The translations under genes and the position numbers were made by a program. A stretch of 16,212 bases of DNA from contig CAYJQZ010000009.1 in NCBI GenBank assembly GCA_964372555.1, positions 1-16,212 on the forward strand, given 5' to 3'. The DNA is from Candidatus Woesearchaeota archaeon. GTDB taxonomy: Archaea; Nanobdellota; Nanobdellia; SCGC-AAA011-G17; GW2011-AR18. Shown piece by piece: positions 1-16,203 of the stretch. Below the pieces are notes generated by a model. That model was not told where the DNA came from. It ran no database searches and saw nothing but the letters and a program-made list of their open reading frames with translations. Position 1 is the first letter of the stretch. Each line of letters begins with the position of its first letter.

Positions 1-347
1 ATTTGCGGTGTTGATTGTGAAAAAAACCCCTTGGAGACAAGAAGATTTTGAGCAAGTGTTGTTATTTTTGGTTCATCCCTAAGAAATATGTTGACTGAAG
101 AAATTCTATGAACTGTTGCAAACTCTGTTGTTGGTGTAACCAAACCAGGAGATTCTGCAAGTAGTTCAATTTTTGCTGGTGATGTTGATGTACCTGATTC
201 TCTTACACCAGTAATATTTTGAGTTAGTAATTGTTCTCTGTCTTCTGGTGGTATAAATAAAATATATAATGTCATGAACAAAGCGATTACAATAAGAATT
301 ACTGCTATTGAACTACCTTCTTTTTGTGCTCTTTTGGACTTATACAT
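1..347 (-). CDS. Pilin-like / N-terminally anchored protein, 5' part only (runs off the left edge)
   Basis: Not in the ORF track because there is no stop in the window. ATG at 347-345. My translation is MYKSKRAQKEGSSIAVILIVIALFMTLYILFIPPEDREQLLTQNITGVRESGTSTSPAKIELL... It has a short basic N-terminus ending in KEG, then a ~22-residue hydrophobic helix. A TATA-like box lies 23 nt upstream. The gene is divergent from the prepilin peptidase gene. Confidence 0.5.
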   Translation of the reverse strand, partial: MYKSKRAQKEGSSIAVILIVIALFMTLYILFIPPEDREQLLTQNITGVRESGTSTSPAKIELLAESPGLVTPTTEFATVHRISSVNIFLRDEPKITTLAQNLLVSKGFFSQSTPQ

Positions 348-471: not shown

Positions 472-1335
472 ATGCTATTTTGGTACTTTTTGGTTATTGT
501 GGCTTTGATATGGCTTTTGTTTGCTACTATAACTGATATTAAGAAAAAAGAGGTTCCTGATTGGCTCAACTATAGCTTGGTTATTATTGGTTTAGGAAGC
601 AGGCTGATTTATTCTCTTATAACCTGGGATTTTAGCTATATTTTATTTGGTTTACTTGGTTTTGTTGTATTCTTTGTTTTTGCGCATTTAATGTATTACA
701 CAAAACAATGGGGTGGCGGTGATAGTAAGCTATTAATGGGTTTAGGCGCAATGTTTGGAAATTATGAACCTATTTTCAATGGAATAAATTTGCTTCCCTT
801 TTTAGTTACACTCTTGATAAATATATTTGTAGCTGGAACTTTGTATGGAATTTTATACTCTTTGTTTTTAGGTGTTAGAAATTGGAATAAATTTGCAACT
901 GAATTCAGAAAGAGGAATTTTATGGAGGTAAAAATAATAGGTTTGCTTATTTTTGTTTTAATTATTGTTATTTATTTTGTTTTTAGTAAAGACTTGTCTT
1001 ATTTAATAATTTTATTATTGCTACTCTTATTTTTAGCTTTTGTTTTATTACAGCTAATAAAAATAGTTGAAGATTCTTCCTTGTATAAACTAATTAATAT
1101 AAATCAATTAACTGAAGGAGACTGGTTAGTTAATGATATTGCAAAGAATGGAAAAATAATATGCAAGGTAAGAAATATAGGTTTGACTAAAAAAGATATA
1201 GTTGCTTTAAAGAAAGCTCAAATCAAAAAAGTTTTGGTGAAAGAAGGAATACCTTTTGTTCCTGGATTTTTAATTGGGTTTTTAATAAGTATAATGTGGG
1301 GTGATGTTTTGGCTATTATGGTTGCTTTTTTTTAG
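472..1335 (+). CDS. Archaeal type IV prepilin/preflagellin peptidase (A24 family, FlaK/PibD/EppA-like)
   Basis: Polytopic membrane protein. First catalytic Asp context is TITDIKKKEVPDW. Second is the GxGD motif WGGGDSKLLMGLG. The terminal helix IPFVPGFLIGF is typical of A24 peptidases. A soluble insert (EGDWLVNDIAKNGKIICKV...) sits before the last TM, as in FlaK. Confidence 0.85.
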   Translation: MLFWYFLVIVALIWLLFATITDIKKKEVPDWLNYSLVIIGLGSRLIYSLITWDFSYILFGLLGFVVFFVFAHLMYYTKQWGGGDSKLLMGLGAMFGNYEPIFNGINLLPFLVTLLINIFVAGTLYGILYSLFLGVRNWNKFATEFRKRNFMEVKIIGLLIFVLIIVIYFVFSKDLSYLIILLLLLLFLAFVLLQLIKIVEDSSLYKLININQLTEGDWLVNDIAKNGKIICKVRNIGLTKKDIVALKKAQIKKVLVKEGIPFVPGFLIGFLISIMWGDVLAIMVAFF

Positions 1336-4949: not shown

Positions 4950-5975
4950 TTATACATCCTTAACGCCACTTTCTTCTATGTTAAAAACTATCTCTCCGTC
5001 AGCTAAGTGCGGACTATCAATAAGTTTTGCAACTCTCGTTCCTTTCTTTCCTTTTCTAAGATAAATTCTAGTTTGACTGTTGTGTCCCACTATATGCCCT
5101 CCAATGGCTGCAGTCGGATCTCCAAAGAAAGTGTCTGGTTTTGACATAACTTGATTTGTTACATAGACTACTAAGTTGTAAGCTGTAGCCATTTTACTTA
5201 GTACGTGCATATGTTTATTCAATTTTTGTTGTCTGTCCGCTAACATTCCCCTTCCCGTAAAATCTGCTCTAAAATGTGACATCAATGAATCCACAATTAC
5301 TAATTTCACATTTAGTCCTTCATTTTTTATTAGATCTTCAACTTTCTCTGCAAGAAGCATTTGATGATCACTGTTGAAAGCCCTAGCAACTTTAATATTT
5401 TTTAGAGTTTGTGTTGAATCAAGTCCTAATGATTCTGCCATTTGCTTAACTCTTTCTGGTCTAAATGCACCTTCAGTGTCTATGTAAACACATATTCCCT
5501 CAGCTCCGCCTTTCTCTTTAGACAACTGAACATTTACTGCAAGCTGATGTGCAATTTGTGTCTTCGATGAACCAAATTCCCCAAAACATTCTGTAATTCC
5601 ACCAGCTTCAAATCCTCCACCAAGTAAACCATCAAAGGCCTTACAACCTGTAGTAAGTTTTAATAGATTCTTTCTTCTTTCTAGTAATTCATCACCAGAT
5701 TCAAAACCCATATTCATTGTATCTCTTGCTGCTTTGATAACTTTTCTTGCTGTAGCTTCTGTTAATCCACCAGCTTCAACTAATTCTCCTGGAGATGCAA
5801 CTGCCAAAGACAATAAAGTATCAAATCCTGATTCTTTTAATTTTTCAGCTGTTGCTGGTCCTACTCCTGGCAAATCTTCAACAGAATCAATTTTAACTTT
5901 CTTAGTAATCTTTTCTTCAGGCATAACCTCTTGTATCTGTTCTGTTATTTCAATCTTTCTACTCATTTTCCTCAT
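4950..5975 (-). CDS. radA: DNA repair and recombination protein RadA
   Basis: N-terminal HhH (LPGVGPATAEKLKESGFDTL), Walker A region GEFGSSKTQ, Walker B LVIVDSLMSHFR, and the LNKHMHVLSKMA and GGHIVGHNSQTRIYLRKG blocks. An alternative start is the ATG at 5966, which has GGAGG 9 nt upstream. Confidence 0.93.
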   Translation of the reverse strand: MRKMSRKIEITEQIQEVMPEEKITKKVKIDSVEDLPGVGPATAEKLKESGFDTLLSLAVASPGELVEAGGLTEATARKVIKAARDTMNMGFESGDELLERRKNLLKLTTGCKAFDGLLGGGFEAGGITECFGEFGSSKTQIAHQLAVNVQLSKEKGGAEGICVYIDTEGAFRPERVKQMAESLGLDSTQTLKNIKVARAFNSDHQMLLAEKVEDLIKNEGLNVKLVIVDSLMSHFRADFTGRGMLADRQQKLNKHMHVLSKMATAYNLVVYVTNQVMSKPDTFFGDPTAAIGGHIVGHNSQTRIYLRKGKKGTRVAKLIDSPHLADGEIVFNIEESGVKDV

Positions 5976-6228
5976 CCTCCTCTTTTTCTTCCTGTGCTAA
6001 AAGTAAATCTTCCATTACTTTATTCATCAAAACAATTATTCTTGGTATGTCATGCTTTCTTAATTGGATTGTTGCGTCACGCCATACTCCCTGGTCATCT
6101 TTCCAGCTTTTTCTTAGGCTTACTGTTTTGAAACCTACTATTGTATCGTCTTTTATTTGTCTTTCATTAAGCCAGATTGCAGCCTCTAACTGACCTGACC
6201 TAAACTTCTGTATTGGTCTATTTCCCAT
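5959..6228 (-). CDS. Small protein with a poly-acidic C-terminal tail, co-transcribed with radA; possible PC4/YdbC-like ssDNA-binding fold
   Basis: 89 aa. GGAG is present 9-12 nt upstream of the ATG. The body (FKTVSLRKSWKDDQGVWRDATIQLRKHDIPRIIVLMNKV) resembles the beta-sheet-plus-helix PC4/YdbC pattern. The tail is EEKEEDEENE. The 3' end overlaps the radA start by 8-17 nt. Confidence 0.6.
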   Translation of the reverse strand: MGNRPIQKFRSGQLEAAIWLNERQIKDDTIVGFKTVSLRKSWKDDQGVWRDATIQLRKHDIPRIIVLMNKVMEDLLLAQEEKEEDEENE

Positions 6229-9080: not shown

Positions 9081-9099
9081 GTTATTCCTAATTTTAATT

Positions 9100-9107
9100 T
9101 ATATAAA
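9100..9107 (-). promoter_or_regulatory. TATA box (TTTATATA) for the RPA-YdjM-PAP2 operon
   Basis: It lies in the 36-nt gap between the stop of the upstream gene (9117) and the RPA ATG (9080), with 19 nt between the box and the ATG. Confidence 0.4.
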
Positions 9108-9116
9108 AAGGTTTTG

Positions 9117-10634
9117 TTATGCATAGTTCGGCGTAACTGTTGCAGATGCACTAGCCATAGTATCTTCACTAAAGTAACATTTATTTGCTTGTTTTGCTTG
9201 GTCATAACCAGCAGAGAGGTATTCATAATGCCACCATTCTCTTCCGTAATTTGCCCAGCCTGCTCTGCACATTATATTACGCAAGTCTCTTATGTCTTGT
9301 TGCGAAGTTCCTTTTTTAAGCTGTACATCTAAAGCACGTCCAGAAACATGCCTACATACAGAATAACGAGGTAAGTCTTCTATAATTGCTAAAGTATTTA
9401 GATCATTTTGTGAAAGCCAATTTCTTGCAGCTTCTATGCGCTGTTGCGTTGTGCCTTCTACGTTTGGTACTCTTTTTTCTAATTCGTATTTATCTTCTAT
9501 TCCAATAGGGCCACATGCTTCAACTCTTCCTGCTAAAAATGCTAAGAATGCGTTACGTTGTGATTCTGATGAACGCGCTGCATCGTTAATTATTATATGT
9601 TGAGATGGATTTGATATAACTTGCCTTATCCTTTCTATCTGCCCAACACTTTCTTGTTTGGCGCAACATGTTGATTTTAAACATTTAACTTCTTCATCTT
9701 GTGGTATTGGAATTAGGCTTTCAGCTAAACCTCTGCATTGGCCTGATGTTGCTATGGCTGTTTCTTCTATAATATTTTCTTCTGCATTAGAATAAAACAA
9801 TTCTTCTTCATAATCATATGTTTCTGTATCTTGATATTCTGGTATTGGTTGTGATGGATTAAATGCTAATTTTATATTCCCTTTGTTTGTCTCTAAGTCT
9901 ACTTTAATTAATTCACCAGACCTAACTATATTTATTGTTGGGAAATATTGTGTTAGTTTAGATTGACATTCACTAAATTCTTTATCTATACAATTTTCTT
10001 GTATCGTGTAGTACAAGTCTCTATATACTGAAAGTGGCGGTCTTGTTGTGCTTGTTAATGGTTTCATAACTAAAACAGAACCTTCTGCGCTTTCTACCGG
10101 TAAGTTTACATCTGATAATGTAATTATTAATTTACTGCCAGAGAATTCTGTATTTATTATATTAGAATTGTTTACATTTTCTGTATATATTTGAGCATAT
10201 TTAATTTGGGTTTCTGGGTTCTCCATATTTAGATCATTTTTATAATCTAGCTGTGTGTATTTACTTTCATATTTATTTATTTTATTTTTAAATTTATTTT
10301 TGAATTGTGATATAAACTCTTGGCTTGGATTTAACACTGGGCATGAATTCCATAATACATAGCCATCTCCTGTTTTTTCGCATCTATTGTTTTCAGAATA
10401 GCCGCCATTGTTTGCTAATGTTTCCCAAGTTTCTTTAGAAGCATATTTTGCAGATAGATCTAAATAAATGTTTATTTTCTCAGATTCATCATAATTCTTA
10501 ATTAAATTTACTGCTCTTAATCCAACTAGGTCTTGTTTGTTTGCTTCCGTTGTACTTATTATGTAAAATAATACAGAGAGTATTACTGCTGTGAATATTA
10601 CGAATATTGGTAAGAAAACTCCTTTTTTATTCAT
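9117..10634 (-). CDS. Class III signal peptide (pilin-like) protein with a C-terminal M15 VanY-like / LAS zinc D-Ala-D-Ala-type peptidase domain
   Basis: Start set at the ATG at 10634 (MNKKGVFLPIFVIFTAVILSVLFYII), which has GAGGA 9 nt upstream. The track start at 10679 is a TTG inside the previous gene. C-terminal motifs are NDAARSSESQRNAF, then CRHVSGRALDV (HxxGxAxD, His codon at 9348-9350), then REWWHYEY (ExxH). Confidence 0.8.
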   Translation of the reverse strand: MNKKGVFLPIFVIFTAVILSVLFYIISTTEANKQDLVGLRAVNLIKNYDESEKINIYLDLSAKYASKETWETLANNGGYSENNRCEKTGDGYVLWNSCPVLNPSQEFISQFKNKFKNKINKYESKYTQLDYKNDLNMENPETQIKYAQIYTENVNNSNIINTEFSGSKLIITLSDVNLPVESAEGSVLVMKPLTSTTRPPLSVYRDLYYTIQENCIDKEFSECQSKLTQYFPTINIVRSGELIKVDLETNKGNIKLAFNPSQPIPEYQDTETYDYEEELFYSNAEENIIEETAIATSGQCRGLAESLIPIPQDEEVKCLKSTCCAKQESVGQIERIRQVISNPSQHIIINDAARSSESQRNAFLAFLAGRVEACGPIGIEDKYELEKRVPNVEGTTQQRIEAARNWLSQNDLNTLAIIEDLPRYSVCRHVSGRALDVQLKKGTSQQDIRDLRNIMCRAGWANYGREWWHYEYLSAGYDQAKQANKCYFSEDTMASASATVTPNYA

Positions 10635-11215
10635 TATATTTTCCTCAGTGCTATGTCTGCTCTTTCTATATTTGTACAATCAAAACAACCAAAGTACATG
10701 GTTACTGTTGCTGTTTCTCCGTTCTCTAGCGGAATAGACATAGATTGAGCTAAATGGCTGTAACTTCCTACCTCAAATACTTCTGGTTCTCCAAGACGCA
10801 AGAAATTATTTTGCCCTATCTTTATATTAAAGTTCCATGTTGCTTCTTTGCTCTTTCTTGTTGCTTCGCTTGTAGCAATTATGCTTGCTGGTTGTCCTTC
10901 TACAACTGGTAATTTGCTTAATAATGTTTTGAGCTCTTCATTTAATTCATCTTTATAATTTTCATCTTTGTAAGCCAATGATATTAATTCTCCTACTGTT
11001 AATGCATTGTTATTTTGTTGTATTGACGTTGGTGACCTAATAATTGCGTTTAATTCTGAACTAGAACTGTATGCTTCTGGTCTTATAACTAAATTTGGTG
11101 ATTGCTTAATTCCTATCACAAAAAAGATAGTGCCAAAAAAAATTAAGATGAGTACTAGCAAGACAACTGACTGAAAAAAATACAGTGGATAACTAATTCC
11201 TTTTTTATTAAACAA
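10634..11215 (-). CDS. Class III signal peptide (pilin-like) protein, unknown function
   Basis: TTG start at 11215 with AGGTGAT (a strong anti-16S match) 5 nt upstream. N-terminus is (M)FNKKGISYPLYFFQSVVLLVLILIFFGTIFFV. There is a C-terminal CFDC pair. It overlaps both neighbours. Confidence 0.7.
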   Translation of the reverse strand: MFNKKGISYPLYFFQSVVLLVLILIFFGTIFFVIGIKQSPNLVIRPEAYSSSSELNAIIRSPTSIQQNNNALTVGELISLAYKDENYKDELNEELKTLLSKLPVVEGQPASIIATSEATRKSKEATWNFNIKIGQNNFLRLGEPEVFEVGSYSHLAQSMSIPLENGETATVTMYFGCFDCTNIERADIALRKI

Positions 11216-11684
11216 GTTTTATCACCTGTGTAATCATGTGGCCAGTTTTTATTTCTCCATTTTGGAAGTATGAAACTAATTCTTTTCTTGTGAGACATTT
11301 GTATTTCTCTAAATTGCTACAGATTGGAAGATAGGATTCCTGACTAATATCTAGATTGCTTGCTGATGTTAATGTATTTCCGTCTATATCATCTACAAGA
11401 ATAACATAACCAAATCCCTCTTTTGAAAAACATCTGTTTAATGTATCAAAATTAATTTTTTGGATGTCTATAATCCCTAGATGTGTTCTAGTTCCGTCAT
11501 TGTAAGCTAAGCAAGAATCAGAATACATTAAGTTTCTAGTTAGTAAAAAAGTTTCGAGGCCTATAGTATCTATGTCTTCGTTTAAGTATCTTAATGTTAC
11601 TATTAAAATAAAGATTGCTACAACTATTACAATCATTAAGTTAACTGCTATCTTTACTATATCCAATATTCCTTTTTTATGCAT
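11208..11684 (-). CDS. Class III signal peptide (pilin-like) protein, unknown function
   Basis: N-terminus MHKKGILDIVKIAVNLMIVIVVAIFILIV. Four Cys in the extracellular part. It has 8-nt overlaps with both neighbours. Confidence 0.7.
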   Translation of the reverse strand: MHKKGILDIVKIAVNLMIVIVVAIFILIVTLRYLNEDIDTIGLETFLLTRNLMYSDSCLAYNDGTRTHLGIIDIQKINFDTLNRCFSKEGFGYVILVDDIDGNTLTSASNLDISQESYLPICSNLEKYKCLTRKELVSYFQNGEIKTGHMITQVIKLV

Positions 11685-12045
11685 TTTTTCTTATTTTTAT
11701 AACATTATTCTGTAATTTTTCTTCTGTAATTTCTATGAGGCTATTTCTTGCACAATGAAATGCTGCAGGTGTTCTTTTTTCTTCTATATAATTTGCTTTT
11801 ACTAAGCACACTTCTTTGTTTATGTCTATTTCAATGCCTTGCTTTGTATTATATTTGTATTCTAATTGGTGGGGTGCAGGTAATGCTGCATCTCTAAGAA
11901 ATGCATAGTCTCTTGATTCTACTCTTAAATTGTGGAGGTGATCGTCTTTTATTCTTGCTGTACCAGCGAGCAGAACTGCTGTTACTATTAAAAGAAAGAA
12001 TAATTCTGTTAATAGCTCTGTTGATATTAATAATCCTTTTTTCAT
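11677..12045 (-). CDS. Class III signal peptide (pilin-like) protein, unknown function
   Basis: Start set at the ATG at 12045 (MKKGLLISTELLTELFFLLIVTAVLLAG), 1 nt after the upstream stop. The track start at 12177 is a TTG inside the SLT gene. Two Cys are present. Confidence 0.65.
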   Translation of the reverse strand: MKKGLLISTELLTELFFLLIVTAVLLAGTARIKDDHLHNLRVESRDYAFLRDAALPAPHQLEYKYNTKQGIEIDINKEVCLVKANYIEEKRTPAAFHCARNSLIEITEEKLQNNVIKIRKNA

Positions 12046-12046
12046 T

Positions 12047-13705
12047 TTATGATGCTGCCTGTAATTCATTATAATATCTTCTTGCAGTCGTAGCGTATGC
12101 TCTTGTTTCATTGCAACAATAATTATTATCATCAATAACGCCTGCCCTGCCCGGTCCTGCATTGTAGCCTGCTGCAATATTTTCTACTGTAAGCGGGATT
12201 CCTCTTCTTGCTAATATTTTTTTAATATAAACAATGTAATCTATTGCTGCGACTACTGCTTTTCTTTCATTAAATCTCTCATCATACAAAGCAAGCTGTG
12301 TTGTTGGTGTTGCACTTCTAAATCTATCAAGCGCTGCCCCATAATTTCTATCACATCCACTAGTAAATTGCACTCCCTGTCCTGTTCTTGGATCTGTTAC
12401 TGGATCTAATACTCTTAAACCAAGGCCTTTGCCTGTGGTTGGCATTATCTGCATTAACCCTGCAGCACCACAATGAGATACTGCATATGGATCCCAGGTA
12501 TTACCTGTCTCTATTTTTACTATAGAAATAACTAATGAGGGATCAACTCCCTTTTCTTCTGCTTTTTGTCTTATGAATGGCATTAGTTCTGACTGTAGTT
12601 CTGATAATGAACTTGGTGTTTGCGCTGCAGTTAATTTACTTATAGCAAAATTATTTGAGAAATCATTAAATGTTGCACTACAAATATATTCTGTTGCTAT
12701 TTCTATGCACCGCAATGGAACCTGTAGCCAGGTATTTCCTTTTTTGTAATAAAGACCTAGGTTTCTTTCTTGTTGCGGTAATTTGTCTACCTTTGTTTTT
12801 GATATTGCTAGTTCTATTTCTGCCCTGCTTACTAAATTTGGATCTATGCTATTGTGATTTTCTATATATCTCTCTGCTGCTTCGAAATTTTCTGCTGTTG
12901 GCTTTGATCCTAGTTCCATAAACTGCGGAGCAGGATAGAAATGACCTGGTTCTCTATTTGTTTCTGTTGTAGTTGTATCTGGCGGTACTGCTAGATCTAA
13001 ATCAAAAAGTGTTGTGAGGCCTTCAATATTAGGAACGCCTTCTGGAACTATAAAGCCTGCTTCTTTTACTTTTACAATTGGTATGTAAGATTTTATTCTA
13101 ATAGTTTCAAAGGTTACAGATAATTTATTTAACAATCCAGTTACGTCTACGGGAGTAACACCACTTCTAGTATAAACAATAGGTTTTGGTGCTTTTTCTC
13201 CTGTTGGACTATTTACTCTAATGGTTTTGTCATCCTTTACAAAACTAAGTACTGTGTATGTTTCTAGGTCTTCAGTAGAAAACTGTTCTGAATTTACTTC
13301 GTCAAAGTTTTTGAATTTATAACAATCATAGGGATCACATTCTACGTTGCCGGTTATTATATTTCTATCAATGTCACACAAACATATTGTTGCTTCTCTT
13401 GGTTGTACTCCTGGGTAGGGTATTTCATTTCCAACTTGCCTTAAACTAAAACTTACTATATTACAATCATTATTATAAAACAAGAACTGAGATGAAGGTG
13501 CACCAGAATCTAGATCCTTAAGTATTTCCTTTAAGCCATTACTACCATCCCAAGATTTACTATTTGAGCAACTTGCTTTATCTGGTAGTAGTATGTCTGA
13601 AAATATTGGTGCTTTCAATACAATTATAATTATTAATAATACAGCGACTATTAAACTAAAAAGTGCATATGTCTGTATATCTATTGACCCCTTTTTATTT
13701 TTCAT
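12047..13705 (-). CDS. Class III signal peptide (pilin-like) protein with a C-terminal SLT/GH23 lytic transglycosylase domain
   Basis: N-terminus MKNKKGSIDIQTYALFSLIVAVLLIIIIV. The C-terminal sequence VISIVKIETGNTWDPYAVSHCGAAGLMQIMPTT...AGYNAGPGR matches the SLT signature E[ST]-x5-P-x-A-x-S-x2-GA-x-GLMQ plus AYNAG. The catalytic Glu codon is at 12509-12511. Confidence 0.85.
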   Translation of the reverse strand: MKNKKGSIDIQTYALFSLIVAVLLIIIIVLKAPIFSDILLPDKASCSNSKSWDGSNGLKEILKDLDSGAPSSQFLFYNNDCNIVSFSLRQVGNEIPYPGVQPREATICLCDIDRNIITGNVECDPYDCYKFKNFDEVNSEQFSTEDLETYTVLSFVKDDKTIRVNSPTGEKAPKPIVYTRSGVTPVDVTGLLNKLSVTFETIRIKSYIPIVKVKEAGFIVPEGVPNIEGLTTLFDLDLAVPPDTTTTETNREPGHFYPAPQFMELGSKPTAENFEAAERYIENHNSIDPNLVSRAEIELAISKTKVDKLPQQERNLGLYYKKGNTWLQVPLRCIEIATEYICSATFNDFSNNFAISKLTAAQTPSSLSELQSELMPFIRQKAEEKGVDPSLVISIVKIETGNTWDPYAVSHCGAAGLMQIMPTTGKGLGLRVLDPVTDPRTGQGVQFTSGCDRNYGAALDRFRSATPTTQLALYDERFNERKAVVAAIDYIVYIKKILARRGIPLTVENIAAGYNAGPGRAGVIDDNNYCCNETRAYATTARRYYNELQAAS

Positions 13706-13744: not shown

Positions 13745-13918
13745 TTATGGTGTTATATTTGATATTAATGCTGATCCTGTTTGTGCTTGGTCCCTTAAAT
13801 TAGAGCCAACTAAATTTCCATATTTTATAACGAAAAAAGCCACTAGGGCTAGGACAATTAAAATTAAAATCGCTATAACTAAGGTTTCAAGTGATAAAGA
13901 AACGGCTTTTTTATTCAT
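13745..13918 (-). CDS. Mini-pilin (57 aa) with a class III signal peptide
   Basis: Not in the track because it is under 60 aa. My translation is MNKKAVSLSLETLVIAILILIVLALVAFFVIKYGNLVGSNLRDQAQTGSALISNITP. Its ATG lies 1 nt after the upstream stop (TGAAATG). Confidence 0.6.
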   Translation of the reverse strand: MNKKAVSLSLETLVIAILILIVLALVAFFVIKYGNLVGSNLRDQAQTGSALISNITP

Positions 13919-13919
13919 T

Positions 13920-14327
13920 TCAACATTGGATACCAGAGCAGTCTACATTAAGACTTCCTGTTTGAGTTATGCCTCTTCTTCCATCATCTGCTGTCAATTC
14001 TGGATTAACACTGGGTGCACATGACATTCTCTTAGGTTTTGTTTCTGGGTTTGCATCATCATCAACTAAAAATGTTTGTTTACAATAACCTGATTCTTTT
14101 TGATTTGTAGAAGGCAGATTCCCTGCACTTTCACATAAACTAGTGCATGTTTGTATTGCTAAATCTTTTGCTTGGCCAGCACTGCCACCAAATAAATCTC
14201 TAACTTTCCCAACAATGCTACCAAAACCGCCTGCAAAGAAAGCAATTAGAATGACAAGCACAACTAAAACAATTATTGCTATAATAATAACATTCATCGG
14301 CATTCCTTGTGCTTTTTTGTTAAACAT
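13920..14327 (-). CDS. Pilin-like protein (135 aa) with a class III signal peptide and a Cys-rich C-terminal domain; candidate major subunit
   Basis: N-terminus MFNKKAQGMPMNVIIIAIIVLVVLVILIAFFAG. Six Cys in the globular part. It is the only gene inside the block with its own TATA box plus an SD-like AGGTG. Confidence 0.75.
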   Translation of the reverse strand: MFNKKAQGMPMNVIIIAIIVLVVLVILIAFFAGGFGSIVGKVRDLFGGSAGQAKDLAIQTCTSLCESAGNLPSTNQKESGYCKQTFLVDDDANPETKPKRMSCAPSVNPELTADDGRRGITQTGSLNVDCSGIQC

Positions 14328-14381: not shown

Positions 14382-16046
14382 TTAGCTTATACATAAAAGT
14401 TGCTGACATTCGTTGTTGCTATAAGCTGATTGATATATTGCCTCTGCTATGATATTCTGTCCTGCTGCATTTGGATGTAAATGATCTCCGCTATCAAACT
14501 CTGGCTTTAGTGCTCCTGCCCCATTATTGAGTGCAGCATATATATTAACAGACATATCTACATTCTCTGCTTCAGTTAAGATCCAATTATTTATACTAAT
14601 AATTTTATTTTGTGTGTATTGATTACATGTCACTGTAGATGATTGATAACCGCCACAAGGAGTTAATGTCAAAGCTATGACTCTCATATTATTTTGTTTT
14701 CCCTTTAGGTACATCTCTGCCAAATTATCTTTTATATCTTGTTCTGGCCCTGCAATGTTGTTTATTCCGCCTTGTATTATTACATCTTTATAATTCTTAG
14801 ATGTTATATCCACATCAAACCTAGCAGACATTGCTGCTGTTCCTTGCCCTTCAATACCATATTCATTGAAAAGTTGAGAACCACAAAGCGAATTTAATCT
14901 TTGGACATATATTCCTGATGCAGTAATTGAATCACCAATAACGCCTGCATCACATTTTGCTGAACCTGTTGGAATTAATGGGGGGTTTAGACCTAGTCTG
15001 CCTCTTTCTTCTGCTATTCTTCTTTGCTGTGCTTGTTCTAGTGTAACAGGGAGCAAACATAAATTATTTTCAAACGGATAGAAATCAATTTCTACATAAT
15101 CATTAAAATTCAATGTTGACAATGGTTGCTGGTCTGCTTGTGCTGTGTTTCTATAGTCTGAAAAACCGCAAGGCGTCTTTGTAAGTTGTTGTGATTTTAC
15201 TTCTTCGTCTTTATAATTAAGTACAAATTTATTATTTTTTAAGTTTATTGAAAAGTCAGCTATTGTTTTTAGTACTGCTGTTGTATATTTACATTCATCC
15301 CTAACATTTGTTTCTAAGCATTTATTTACTATGGATAATAATTTGTCAAATTCTTCAGATGCTATAGTTGCTCCTTCTAATTTTTCACATTTTTTGAGTC
15401 CTGTTGTTGTTGCTTTTGGAACTAGTGCTGATTTTTCGTTGCTAAATTTGTATAATGCTATTCCACTTTCAACATTTATTTCATCACTCCCACTTACATC
15501 TGTAGCAGAATAAATAGTATCTTCTTCAACAAACTGTCTTTCAACTGGTGTAAAGTCTAGTATGTTTAATTTTCCTCCTTCCTGTATTGGATAGCTTAAT
15601 CCTGAATTTTTAAAATATGTAGTGTCTGGTGCATCAATTGGTGTTGTTTTGGTTGTTACTCCACTCGAGAATTCAACTTGTTCTATACTATTTGTTCCAA
15701 AAAATGCTGCTTCATCTACTTCTGCTCCACTGTGAACACGTATTGCTGTGGCCTTATCTCTATTAACAATTTCCATAATATATAATTCCGGTGTTTTAGG
15801 ATAACTAATTTCACAGTAGCATTCTGCTGATAGAGAGAGTTTACATTCTCTATAACTATTTACAAATTCATCATAGAATGGAAGGTCTCTGTTTACGCCT
15901 AATTCTTGTCTTTCCCTGTCTGCTTGACTTTCCCCTAACAAATTTGGTATGGTATTGGATAGAATTATATATACCCAATACAATAAACCAATTACTGCTA
16001 TTATTATCAAAAATAACATTATTGGCTTTCTTAAAGACAATTCCAT
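14382..16046 (-). CDS. N-terminally anchored secreted protein with a C-terminal SGNH/GDSL hydrolase domain
   Basis: N-terminus MELSLRKPIMLFLIIIAVIGLLYWVYIIL is a signal anchor without the KK[GA] motif. SGNH blocks are VIGDSITASG (block I, Ser codon at 14928-14930), YGIEGQG (block II), IQGGINN (block III) and SGDHLHPN (block V, DxxH). Confidence 0.8.
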   Translation of the reverse strand: MELSLRKPIMLFLIIIAVIGLLYWVYIILSNTIPNLLGESQADRERQELGVNRDLPFYDEFVNSYRECKLSLSAECYCEISYPKTPELYIMEIVNRDKATAIRVHSGAEVDEAAFFGTNSIEQVEFSSGVTTKTTPIDAPDTTYFKNSGLSYPIQEGGKLNILDFTPVERQFVEEDTIYSATDVSGSDEINVESGIALYKFSNEKSALVPKATTTGLKKCEKLEGATIASEEFDKLLSIVNKCLETNVRDECKYTTAVLKTIADFSINLKNNKFVLNYKDEEVKSQQLTKTPCGFSDYRNTAQADQQPLSTLNFNDYVEIDFYPFENNLCLLPVTLEQAQQRRIAEERGRLGLNPPLIPTGSAKCDAGVIGDSITASGIYVQRLNSLCGSQLFNEYGIEGQGTAAMSARFDVDITSKNYKDVIIQGGINNIAGPEQDIKDNLAEMYLKGKQNNMRVIALTLTPCGGYQSSTVTCNQYTQNKIISINNWILTEAENVDMSVNIYAALNNGAGALKPEFDSGDHLHPNAAGQNIIAEAIYQSAYSNNECQQLLCIS

Positions 16047-16047
16047 T

Positions 16048-16203
16048 TTATGAACCGAACCTGAATATATCTTTTAATTTATCTAATATAACTCCTGATT
16101 TTCCTCGAAATAGAAATACAATTCCAATTATTATTATTAAAATTATTAGAGCTAATATTAACTTAATTATGATATCGAGTTCTAAATCTGCTTTTTTGTT
16201 CAT
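16048..16203 (-). CDS. Mini-pilin (51 aa) with a class III signal peptide
   Basis: Not in the track. My translation is MNKKADLELDIIIKLILALIILIIIIGIVFLFRGKSGVILDKLKDIFRFGS. Its stop lies 1 nt before the next ATG (TAAAATG). An in-frame ATG at 16212 (MQRMNKKA...) is possible, so the true start and the upstream context are cut by the window edge. Confidence 0.55.
   Translation of the reverse strand: MNKKADLELDIIIKLILALIILIIIIGIVFLFRGKSGVILDKLKDIFRFGS

Follow-up and report, generated by a model that had tools for sequence, protein, structure and literature searches.

Candidate interchangeable murein hydrolases on pilin-like carrier proteins of an archaeal type IV pilus-like operon

What use might an archaeon have for a murein-cutting enzyme encoded among pilin-like genes? 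We know of no archaeon that makes murein. The question is raised by a contig of 16,212 nucleotides (nt) from a Candidatus Woesearchaeota archaeon (CAYJQZ010000009.1, assembly GCA_964372555.1), hereafter the window, in which a minus-strand gene at 12047..13705 encodes a protein of 552 amino acids (aa) with a pilin-like N-terminus and a C-terminal SLT (soluble lytic transglycosylase) domain. A first-pass annotation, made from the letters of the window, had proposed that this enzyme is aimed at an external bacterial target. Here we describe the protein as the second of three carriers (A, B and C) in a conserved operon, and refer to it as carrier B-SLT. In relatives the same carriers appear with other murein hydrolase domains or with none, and we consider it probable that carrier B-SLT works outside the cell as a modular effector, within a type IV pilus-like (type 4 filament) system that displays interchangeable murein hydrolases against bacterial walls.

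The gene call, which draws on the open reading frame (ORF), its translation and syntenic orthologues, is as first reported: the ORF has an ATG start and 552 codons, and the N- and C-terminal sequences quoted for it match exactly. It comprises a leader, a helix, a conserved carrier module and the SLT (family-1 lytic transglycosylase) domain, the last occupying residues 357–552 (12050..12637, minus strand) as delimited by Pfam, phmmer against the PDB, invariant alignment columns, and AlphaFold2 (AF2) modelling with Foldseek. The PF01464 profile matches residues 378–434 (E=1.2e-12, 47.9 bits against a cut-off of 21.3), although only the N-terminal half of the profile is covered (positions 3–57 of 117) because of an insertion in the domain. 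Identity to solved structures is only ~18%. In phmmer alignments with those structures, E399-T400 falls under the 'IES' of MltC (9vi7, 4c5f) and EmtA/MltE, placing the glutamate at the catalytic position; its codon, GAG at 12509..12511 (minus strand), encodes the predicted catalytic general acid. The GLMQ block (residues 416–419) and the YNAG block (from residue 514, within GYNAGP at 513–518) are likewise where the annotation had seen them. An alignment of carrier B-SLT with 29 SLT homologues (30 sequences) has invariant columns at E399, S410, G-L-M-Q, Y-N-A-G-P and a C-terminal E-T, all of which are kept. The AF2 model of residues 357–552 (predicted local distance difference test, pLDDT, 74.9) has MltC, MltE, MltF and Slt as its best Foldseek matches (probability 1.0, TMq ~0.57). 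By sequence and model alike, this is an intact family-1 lytic transglycosylase domain. With E399 and all of the family-invariant motifs in place, the earlier view that it looks active rather than decayed agrees with every sequence measure, and we predict catalytic competence.

The insertion amounts to ~45 aa and separates GLMQ from YNAG, so that the two motifs are spaced 98 aa apart versus 48–54 aa in small bacterial SLTs. Pro, Gly, Thr and Arg are abundant in the insertion, which lies within 12212..12457 (minus strand; residues 417–498) and includes C451; AF2 models it with low confidence. Long spacing also occurs in two related carrier-type SLTs (86 and 74 aa), most relatives being unmeasurable in this respect. 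The whole protein contains 12 cysteines, at residues 46, 81, 108, 110, 123, 128, 333, 342, 412, 451, 530 and 531.

Carrier B-SLT begins with MKNKKG followed by SIDIQTYALFSLIVAVLLIIIIV, and so displays the pattern of a short basic leader and a hydrophobic helix of ~20 aa. The leader (13688..13705, minus strand), whose last residues are K-K-G, is a putative class III (prepilin-type) signal, a role suggested by motif conservation, with cleavage presumed. Residues 7–30 (13616..13687, minus strand) form a polar spacer, SIDIQTY, and a hydrophobic alpha-helix that AF2 places at residues 11–30. Beyond it lies a Cys-rich, beta-rich module at residues 31–356 (12638..13615, minus strand), marked out by ~40% identity to relatives and by invariant cysteines. 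A word-indexed search with the full protein returned three of these relatives (P0002–P0004, 331–342 aa), none of which has an SLT domain; they align to residues 1–356 at ~40% identity and then end. An exhaustive search of representative sequences found ~47 members of the carrier-B family among the best 150 matches and revealed fused relatives as well.

Across an alignment of 44 carrier-B family members, which are 20–44% identical, the leader pattern M-x(0-6)-K-[KR]-[GA] is present in 40. It is followed by a polar, often acidic spacer (median 5 aa) and then by a hydrophobic helix of ~20 aa. Retention of G or A after the dibasic pair at such low identity points to a processing site rather than to a mere positive-inside anchor. 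In the same alignment C46, C81, C108 and C128 are invariant and C110 and C123 nearly so, a pattern that fits a disulfide-bonded extracellular module. The partner of the SLT domain is accordingly not just a pilin-like N-terminus, as had been supposed, but a conserved carrier protein of ~356 aa. The stretch of about 350 residues described as lacking a recognisable domain does lack a Pfam match; it nevertheless belongs to a conserved family, and residues 1–356 are, on the evidence of this alignment, a conserved carrier module of Woesearchaeota/Nanoarchaeia.

The gene is embedded in a run of nine packed minus-strand genes extending from 16212 down to 9117, with gaps of at most 54 nt or overlaps of at most 8 nt. 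Their order is a mini protein of 51 aa, carrier A (554 aa), a 135-aa protein, a mini protein of 57 aa, carrier B (552 aa), proteins of 122, 158 and 193 aa, and carrier C (505 aa). A K-K-[GA] leader is found on eight of the nine, the exception being carrier A. Locus scans with a four-sequence carrier alignment located three loci in genomes and five in metagenomes. The operon order is one-to-one syntenic in L001/L007, L004, L006, L008, L009, L012, L013 and L014, and each syntenic locus has the same RPA, YdjM and glycosyltransferase genes after the operon. Where the contigs of relatives extend further, a T2SSE-family ATPase and a 721–724-aa protein with at least nine predicted transmembrane (TM) helices lie directly upstream, the arrangement expected of a type 4 filament system. 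The ATPase gene (L001:1-1776, L002:1-1776, L004:1-2161) encodes ~1280 aa and is intein-split, with Intein_splicing and LAGLIDADG_3 homing endonuclease domains. The window itself encodes a candidate leader-cleaving enzyme ~11 kb from the carrier B-SLT gene, an A24 prepilin/preflagellin-type aspartyl peptidase (472..1335, plus strand) with D22 and GGGD84 intact. It matches Pfam Peptidase_A24 (E=4.3e-15), has a weak match to Arc_PepC_II, an archaeal C-terminal extension, and matches NCBIfam FlaK_Arch at E=3.3e-17, far below the equivalog cut-off.

All three carriers of the window outsize their unfused orthologues through C-terminal additions. For carrier B, to which the SLT domain is added, residues 1–356 correspond to unfused proteins of 331–337 aa. 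Carrier A (14382..16046, minus strand) consists of an N-terminal TM helix, a conserved module of ~350 aa and a C-terminal SGNH/GDSL esterase domain (nt 14385-14966; Pfam Lipase_GDSL_2 E=1.6e-12, 48.7 bits against a cut-off of 32.9). Blocks I, III and V of the SGNH fold are kept (GDS371, GGINN426 and DHLH521) and a PDB search matched SGNH structures, while residues 29–359 are orthologous to unfused proteins of 346–375 aa. Carrier C, 505 aa from its MNKKG start (9117..10634, minus strand), joins a conserved module of ~270 aa to a C-terminal M15 (LAS/VanX-type) metallopeptidase (nt 9120-9827) whose motifs are intact, namely H429-VSGRAL-D436 (H-x6-D) and E466-W-W-H469. Residues 1–269 are orthologous to unfused proteins of 274–291 aa. 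No match to carrier C was returned by phmmer against the PDB.

The additions differ from locus to locus. Where the window has SGNH on carrier A, SLT on carrier B and M15 on carrier C, L009 has M15 on A, SLT with M23 on B, and SGNH with M15 on C. L008 has none on A, M15 on B and Amidase_2 on C; L012 bears SLT on B and none on A or C; and L010 has Amidase_2 on B, its carriers A and C lying beyond a short contig. In L001/L007, L004, L013 and L014 all three carriers lack an added domain, as do A and B of L006, whose contig ends at carrier C. The carrier-B family as a whole repeats this picture, with unfused members of 318–347 aa beside fusions to SLT, SLT+M23, SLT+Amidase_2, Amidase_2 and M15. Pfam searches of the 44 members identified SLT in 10, Amidase_2 in six, M23 in three and M15-type domains in three to four, and no catalytic domain of a non-murein substrate class; among the members of at least 500 aa, a murein hydrolase domain was recognised in 14 of 16. 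Carrier C of the window and carrier B of L008 bear M15 domains that share 50% identity, from which we conclude that M15 moved between carriers. The same N-terminal module is thus found both alone and with different C-terminal domains, as would be expected of a modular pilin. As read from these comparisons, the carriers stay the same while their catalytic domains (SLT, M23, Amidase_2, M15, SGNH) are interchangeable, as in polymorphic effector systems, and the predicted activities span the glycan strand of murein, the link between N-acetylmuramic acid (MurNAc) and L-Ala, the stem peptide and the cross-links.

The operons that carry no hydrolase bear directly on the target. Since orthologous operons free of hydrolases exist (L001, L004, L006, L013, L014), the pilus-like system would not need an SLT for its assembly, which argues against a VirB1-like role on the cell's own wall and for an external target. 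Together with the murein-only domain swaps and the armed carriers A and C, these unarmed operons support the bacterial target that the first-pass annotation had proposed, and make the sequence-based case for it much stronger than did the initial reading.

That annotation had also suggested a phylogeny of the SLT domain alone, which might nest within bacterial or phage clades and so indicate domain-level horizontal transfer. No bacterial or phage donor emerged; the nearest sequences are K/N/I-rich SLTs, presumably from DPANN archaea (Diapherotrites, Parvarchaeota, Aenigmarchaeota and Nanoarchaeota, along with Nanohaloarchaeota). When the search was made with just the SLT domain, the top matches, at 70–115 bits, were SLT domains borne on other carriers (P0036, P0037, P0039, P0043, P0045, P0051), with those of K/N/I-rich proteins of 1220–2242 aa (P0055, P0058) in the same group, and generic SLTs formed a flat plateau at 55–65 bits. 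An indexed search with this domain gave weak matches (E>=1.7e-8) to small bacterial-type SLTs, among which no donor clade was identifiable. In a neighbour-joining tree of 110 SLT domains, the window SLT falls in a clade of 13–19 members, all K/N/I-rich, that includes every carrier-borne SLT placed in the tree; this tree is rough, being built from BLOSUM62 distances without bootstrap, with taxa assigned from amino-acid composition and leaders. GC content at third codon positions (GC3) is equal in the carrier and catalytic parts of all three carrier genes (0.175–0.211; 0.185 versus 0.189 in the SLT gene), so the difference in raw GC between the SLT part (0.386) and the carrier part (0.331) reflects amino-acid composition. 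Equal GC3 and the K/N/I-rich nearest relatives led us to reject a recent domain-level transfer. A viral origin was also rejected, as a search of 2.9 million viral contigs found no relatives and the gene's chromosomal surroundings are conserved in synteny. The comparisons indicate that SLT was acquired long ago and was then probably shuffled inside the lineage. As for the large proteins in this group, P0055 (1220 aa) carries DUF4344 metallopeptidase, SLT and Metallophos domains. It is encoded within L011:1-16420, in a related MAG (GCA_053531355.1), beside other giant genes (2023 and 1309 aa), of which one has CBM96 and GH5-like domains, and the whole may be a separate extracellular-enzyme cluster.

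How the system might work can be outlined as follows. The basic leader and hydrophobic helix would insert the protein into the membrane, and the A24 peptidase would probably cleave the leader after K-K-G (at G6). The Cys-rich carrier may then anchor in a filament of the 51-, 57- and 135-aa pilin-like proteins, or at its tip or base. From there the SLT domain is predicted to cut the beta-1,4 bond between MurNAc and N-acetylglucosamine (GlcNAc) in bacterial peptidoglycan, with E399 as general acid, yielding 1,6-anhydro-MurNAc ends. M15 on carrier C would act on peptide stems, and SGNH on carrier A could be a de-O-acetylase that unmasks the MurNAc C6-OH for the transglycosylase; Ape-type esterases strip O-acetyl groups that block lytic transglycosylases. 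SLT, M15 and SGNH would together form a complementary murein-dismantling set facing a bacterial cell, serving attachment and penetration, predation, or the harvest of wall material. In a bolder version, which we put forward tentatively, the filament is an enzymatic harpoon or drill whose three carriers hold combinatorial, rapidly reshuffled murein hydrolases and breach the walls of bacterial hosts or prey, the set having one enzyme for the glycan strand, one for the stem peptide, an amidase or an enzyme that cuts cross-links, and a de-O-acetylase. If this is true, the locus would encode a dedicated apparatus for attack or episymbiosis of an archaeon on bacteria, and the first enzymatically armed type 4 filament.

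A number of observations weigh against the assignment to a filament system. Pfam at E<=10 and NCBIfam matched no curated pilin or class III signal model on the eight operon N-termini; the nearest Pfam match among the N-termini and small pilin-like proteins was DUF7554, below threshold, on the 51-aa protein (E=0.0065). About two of the eight operon leaders would presumably match the FlaFind pattern, and a polar spacer of ~5 aa between the putative cleavage site and the helix is atypical for canonical archaeal pilins. Carrier A starts with MELSLRKP, a plain TM segment devoid of a K-K-G motif. The full-length AF2 model of carrier B-SLT, made with a four-sequence alignment, has a pLDDT of 53 and shows an N-terminal helix followed by beta-rich regions; Foldseek found no match to it at E<=0.001, leaving the carrier fold unclassified. 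Of the machinery, this 16-kb contig contains neither the ATPase gene nor the platform gene, and the putative platform protein of 721–724 aa in relatives has no T2SSF match in Pfam. The enzymatic assignments have their own weak points: M15 on carrier C is barely over its Pfam threshold (27.4 bits for Peptidase_M15, cut-off 27), and a lipase is the other candidate role for SGNH, for which a role on the wall, such as de-O-acetylation, is plausible because SGNH and M15 share one polypeptide in L009. Given that no curated model matched and that the carrier fold is unclassified, we use 'pilin-like' on the strength of pattern and context: for the N-terminus so named in the first-pass annotation, the leader-helix pattern and the surrounding genes speak in favour, while the curated models are silent.

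Some of these points would equally suit surface-anchored ecto-enzymes that are not filament subunits at all. The N-terminus would then be an uncleaved N-in/C-out signal anchor holding hydrolases on the archaeal membrane, where they break down peptidoglycan at a zone of cell-cell contact, or obtain amino sugars and amino acids by scavenging necromass and fragments of walls. This is the main competing explanation, and differs in how the enzyme is presented rather than in its substrate. The silence of the pilin models, the polar spacer after K-K-G, the lack of that motif on carrier A and the unclassified carrier fold are all as it would have them, and DPANN archaea, whose biosynthesis is reduced, are thought to be scavengers (PMC8204110, PMC10936187). 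A mere anchor, however, needs no G or A after two basic residues, yet one is conserved in 40 of 44 family members; the genes also stand among small pilin-like genes in a conserved operon, with a T2SSE ATPase upstream in relatives, and an A24 peptidase is present. We judge ecto-enzymes rather unlikely on balance. A housekeeping SLT that opens the cell's own wall polymer for the assembly of a machine, in the manner of VirB1, FlgJ and the specialised transglycosylases, is very improbable. Bacterial SLT genes do often occur in pilus, flagellum and secretion operons, and there is a weak NCBIfam match to a flagellar assembly lytic transglycosylase, but five distinct orthologous operons are hydrolase-free and the added domains hit up to four types of murein bond, which amounts to demolition rather than to the opening of a local gap. 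Moreover, DPANN SLT proteins have been noted as anomalous, archaea not being known as murein makers (PMC8204110).

Turning from presentation to substrate, the enzyme might instead act on chitin, on the surface glycan of an archaeal host, on pseudomurein or on the cell's own glycoproteins. Crystal entries of MltE and MltD contain chito-oligosaccharides, the fold of goose-type lysozyme is related, and the known hosts of DPANN archaea are mostly archaea (PMC8204110). Against such substrates, the same carriers in relatives bear Amidase_2, which acts on the MurNAc-L-Ala link, and M23 and M15, which act on peptide bonds of D-amino acids. To our knowledge neither kind of bond is present in chitin or pseudomurein. 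Archaeal peptidoglycan hydrolases are, in addition, few in pseudomurein-making lineages according to one survey (PMC12352652), and a non-murein substrate seems improbable. It is scarcely credible that the fusion is an artefact, whether a chimera made in assembly, contamination from a bacterium or a lysin of a virus or prophage. Such an origin would suit the raw GC, which is higher in the SLT part, and the matches of PHROG endolysin and lytic tail protein families to the SLT domain; against this stand the GC3 shared by both halves, the continuous reading frame, the recurrence of the same fusion in independent assemblies (P0036, P0037, P0039, P0043, P0045), conserved chromosomal synteny with RPA, YdjM and RadA, and the absence of relatives among the viral contigs searched. 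An extracellular, filament-borne effector directed at bacterial murein remains the explanation we favour.

The remaining genes of the operon, all on the minus strand, encode small pilin-like proteins. A leader scan gave the 51-aa mini protein from MNKKA (16048..16203), with orthologues of 53–54 aa in all loci, and the 57-aa mini protein with its MNKKA leader (13745..13918), which has orthologues too. Both comprise a leader, a helix and a tail of ~20 aa, and are conserved in all syntenic loci; they are possibly the major filament subunits, their size being reminiscent of Flp/Tad pilins. Between the first of them and carrier B is the 135-aa protein with an MFNKKA leader (13920..14327), 54–70% identical to its orthologues. 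Downstream of the SLT gene are the 122-aa protein with an MKKG leader (11677..12045; orthologues of 118–124 aa with an equivalent start), the 158-aa protein with an MHKKG leader (11208..11684; leader scan and orthologues) and the 193-aa protein with an FNKKG leader and a TTG start (10634..11215; orthologues). For the first of these an ORF call at 11677-12177, whose TTG start would make it share 131 nt with the 3' end of the SLT gene, is probably spurious; the orthologues and the MKKG leader point to the ATG at 12045, 1 nt past the SLT stop, as the true start.

Elsewhere in the window, a gene at 1-347 (minus strand), cut by the window start and divergent from the A24 gene, encodes a basic leader and helix (MYKSKRA, then QKEGSSIAVILIVIALF). 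ORFs at 1947-2774 (275 aa) and 5959-6228 (89 aa), both on the minus strand, have no Pfam match, and tRNA and Rfam scans of the window returned no features. The window has a GC content of 0.31 and encodes RadA, aEF-1beta, CDP-archaeol synthase, an RPA-type ssDNA-binding protein and the FlaK-like A24 peptidase, and relatives of the SLT protein lie on contigs of Candidatus Woesearchaeota archaeon, Candidatus Nanoarchaeia archaeon and 'archaeon nzgw40'. This archaeal gene content and the lineage of the relatives indicate a DPANN host of the Woesearchaeota/Nanoarchaeia type. Two further features were seen in related loci. Unarmed relatives have a 517-aa leader-bearing operon protein (L001:5154-6707) with a C-terminal Laminin_G_3 (concanavalin-like lectin) domain, a second modular pilin-like type and possibly an adhesin; and the operon of L004 has an insertion directly upstream of carrier B (9099-9922), consisting of a VapB-antitoxin-like gene and an ORF of 207 aa.

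On the question whether any DPANN archaea depend on bacteria instead of other archaea, the sole genomic hint so far has been a set of 'anomalous' SLT proteins. With this locus the hint becomes a concrete system that can be tested, made up of an operon, three carriers, a candidate peptidase and a range of interchangeable murein-specific domains. Otherwise syntenic genomes differ in whether they have the murein domains, and the operon offers markers for predicting which Woesearchaeota/Nanoarchaeia target bacteria. The suggested delivery route, by class III signal or type 4 filament, would escape surveys that count only Sec and Tat. The modular-pilin concept would come to include archaea as well as lytic enzymes, and an unexplored source yields, in the catalytic domains, candidates for antibacterial use. 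Earlier literature anticipates the core idea, and the link to a pilus is one that we infer; the architecture is nonetheless unexpected for specialists on DPANN archaea and on type 4 filaments.

Among known enzymes, Slt70, MltC, MltE/EmtA and MltF (PF01464) share with carrier B-SLT the catalytic Glu in E-S/T, the G-L-M-Q and A-Y-N-A-G-P motifs and the predicted fold. Unlike them, carrier B-SLT is archaeal, is placed behind a pilin-like carrier and has the ~45-aa insertion. A genetic tie between SLT and a filament or secretion machine is familiar from VirB1, IagB and FlgJ of type IV secretion systems, type III secretion systems and flagella, and interchangeable wall-degrading domains on a constant delivery module from the VgrG-fused hydrolases of type VI secretion systems and from phage tail lysins. 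VirB1-type enzymes, in contrast to the role proposed here, act on the producer's own wall, and the delivery modules just named are not homologous to the carriers.

An action of DPANN SLT proteins on the walls of bacteria has been proposed before (PMC8204110, PMC10936187). Castelle et al. (2021; PMC8204110) described large extracellular SLT proteins of Pacearchaeota and Woesearchaeota (fam00969), up to 3000 aa long; the accounts of DPANN SLT proteins by Rinke (2013) and Castelle (2015) are taken here as cited in that paper. The fam00969 proteins come from the same lineage as carrier B-SLT and have the same proposed role in murein binding or degradation. The window SLT clusters with the SLTs of the K/N/I-rich giants P0055 and P0058, which we assign provisionally to fam00969. 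The fam00969 giants are not reported in pilus operons, whereas the SLT here is one interchangeable domain on a 330-aa carrier in a pilin-like operon. Another study describes Woldo and Danwoldo, two peptidoglycan hydrolases that Halogranum salarium secretes and that kill bacteria in experiments, and reports such archaeal enzymes to be especially prominent in Nanoarchaeota (PMC12352652). Its survey scored signals of the Sec and Tat types, and 68% of the peptidoglycan hydrolases of archaea had no recognised signal. Woldo and Danwoldo resemble the carriers in being archaeal, exported and equipped with murein-specific catalytic domains (in the carriers, by prediction). They differ in using Sec/Tat and peptidoglycan-binding domains with M23 or glucosaminidase, and the text searched draws no link to pilins or class III signals.

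The closest architectural parallels are found in pilins themselves. Raynaud et al. (2021; PMC8179133) described PilB-vWA and PilC-lectin of S. sanguinis as modular bacterial type IV pilins, with an N-terminal carrier, a grafted C-terminal effector and many swappable architectures, as here. Their survey concerned bacterial IPR012902 pilins, for which it reported largely adhesive modules and a single type of peptidase, with no mention of archaea or of peptidoglycan; the carriers here are, unlike those pilins, much larger and unrecognised by pilin models. In the literature searched there was no account of a conserved pilus-like operon with three carriers or of its polymorphic murein hydrolases, nor of domain movement between carriers or of coexisting armed and unarmed orthologous operons. 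The combination of pilus-operon carriers with swappable domains appears undescribed, while DPANN SLTs and bactericidal archaeal hydrolases have already been published. An archaeal precedent for non-structural proteins with prepilin signals, assembled by a type IV pilus-like system, is the Sulfolobus bindosome, in which sugar-binding proteins with class III signals are processed by PibD (PMC2910488). The cargo of the bindosome is solute-binding proteins for uptake; that of the operon described here would be hydrolases aimed at another organism.

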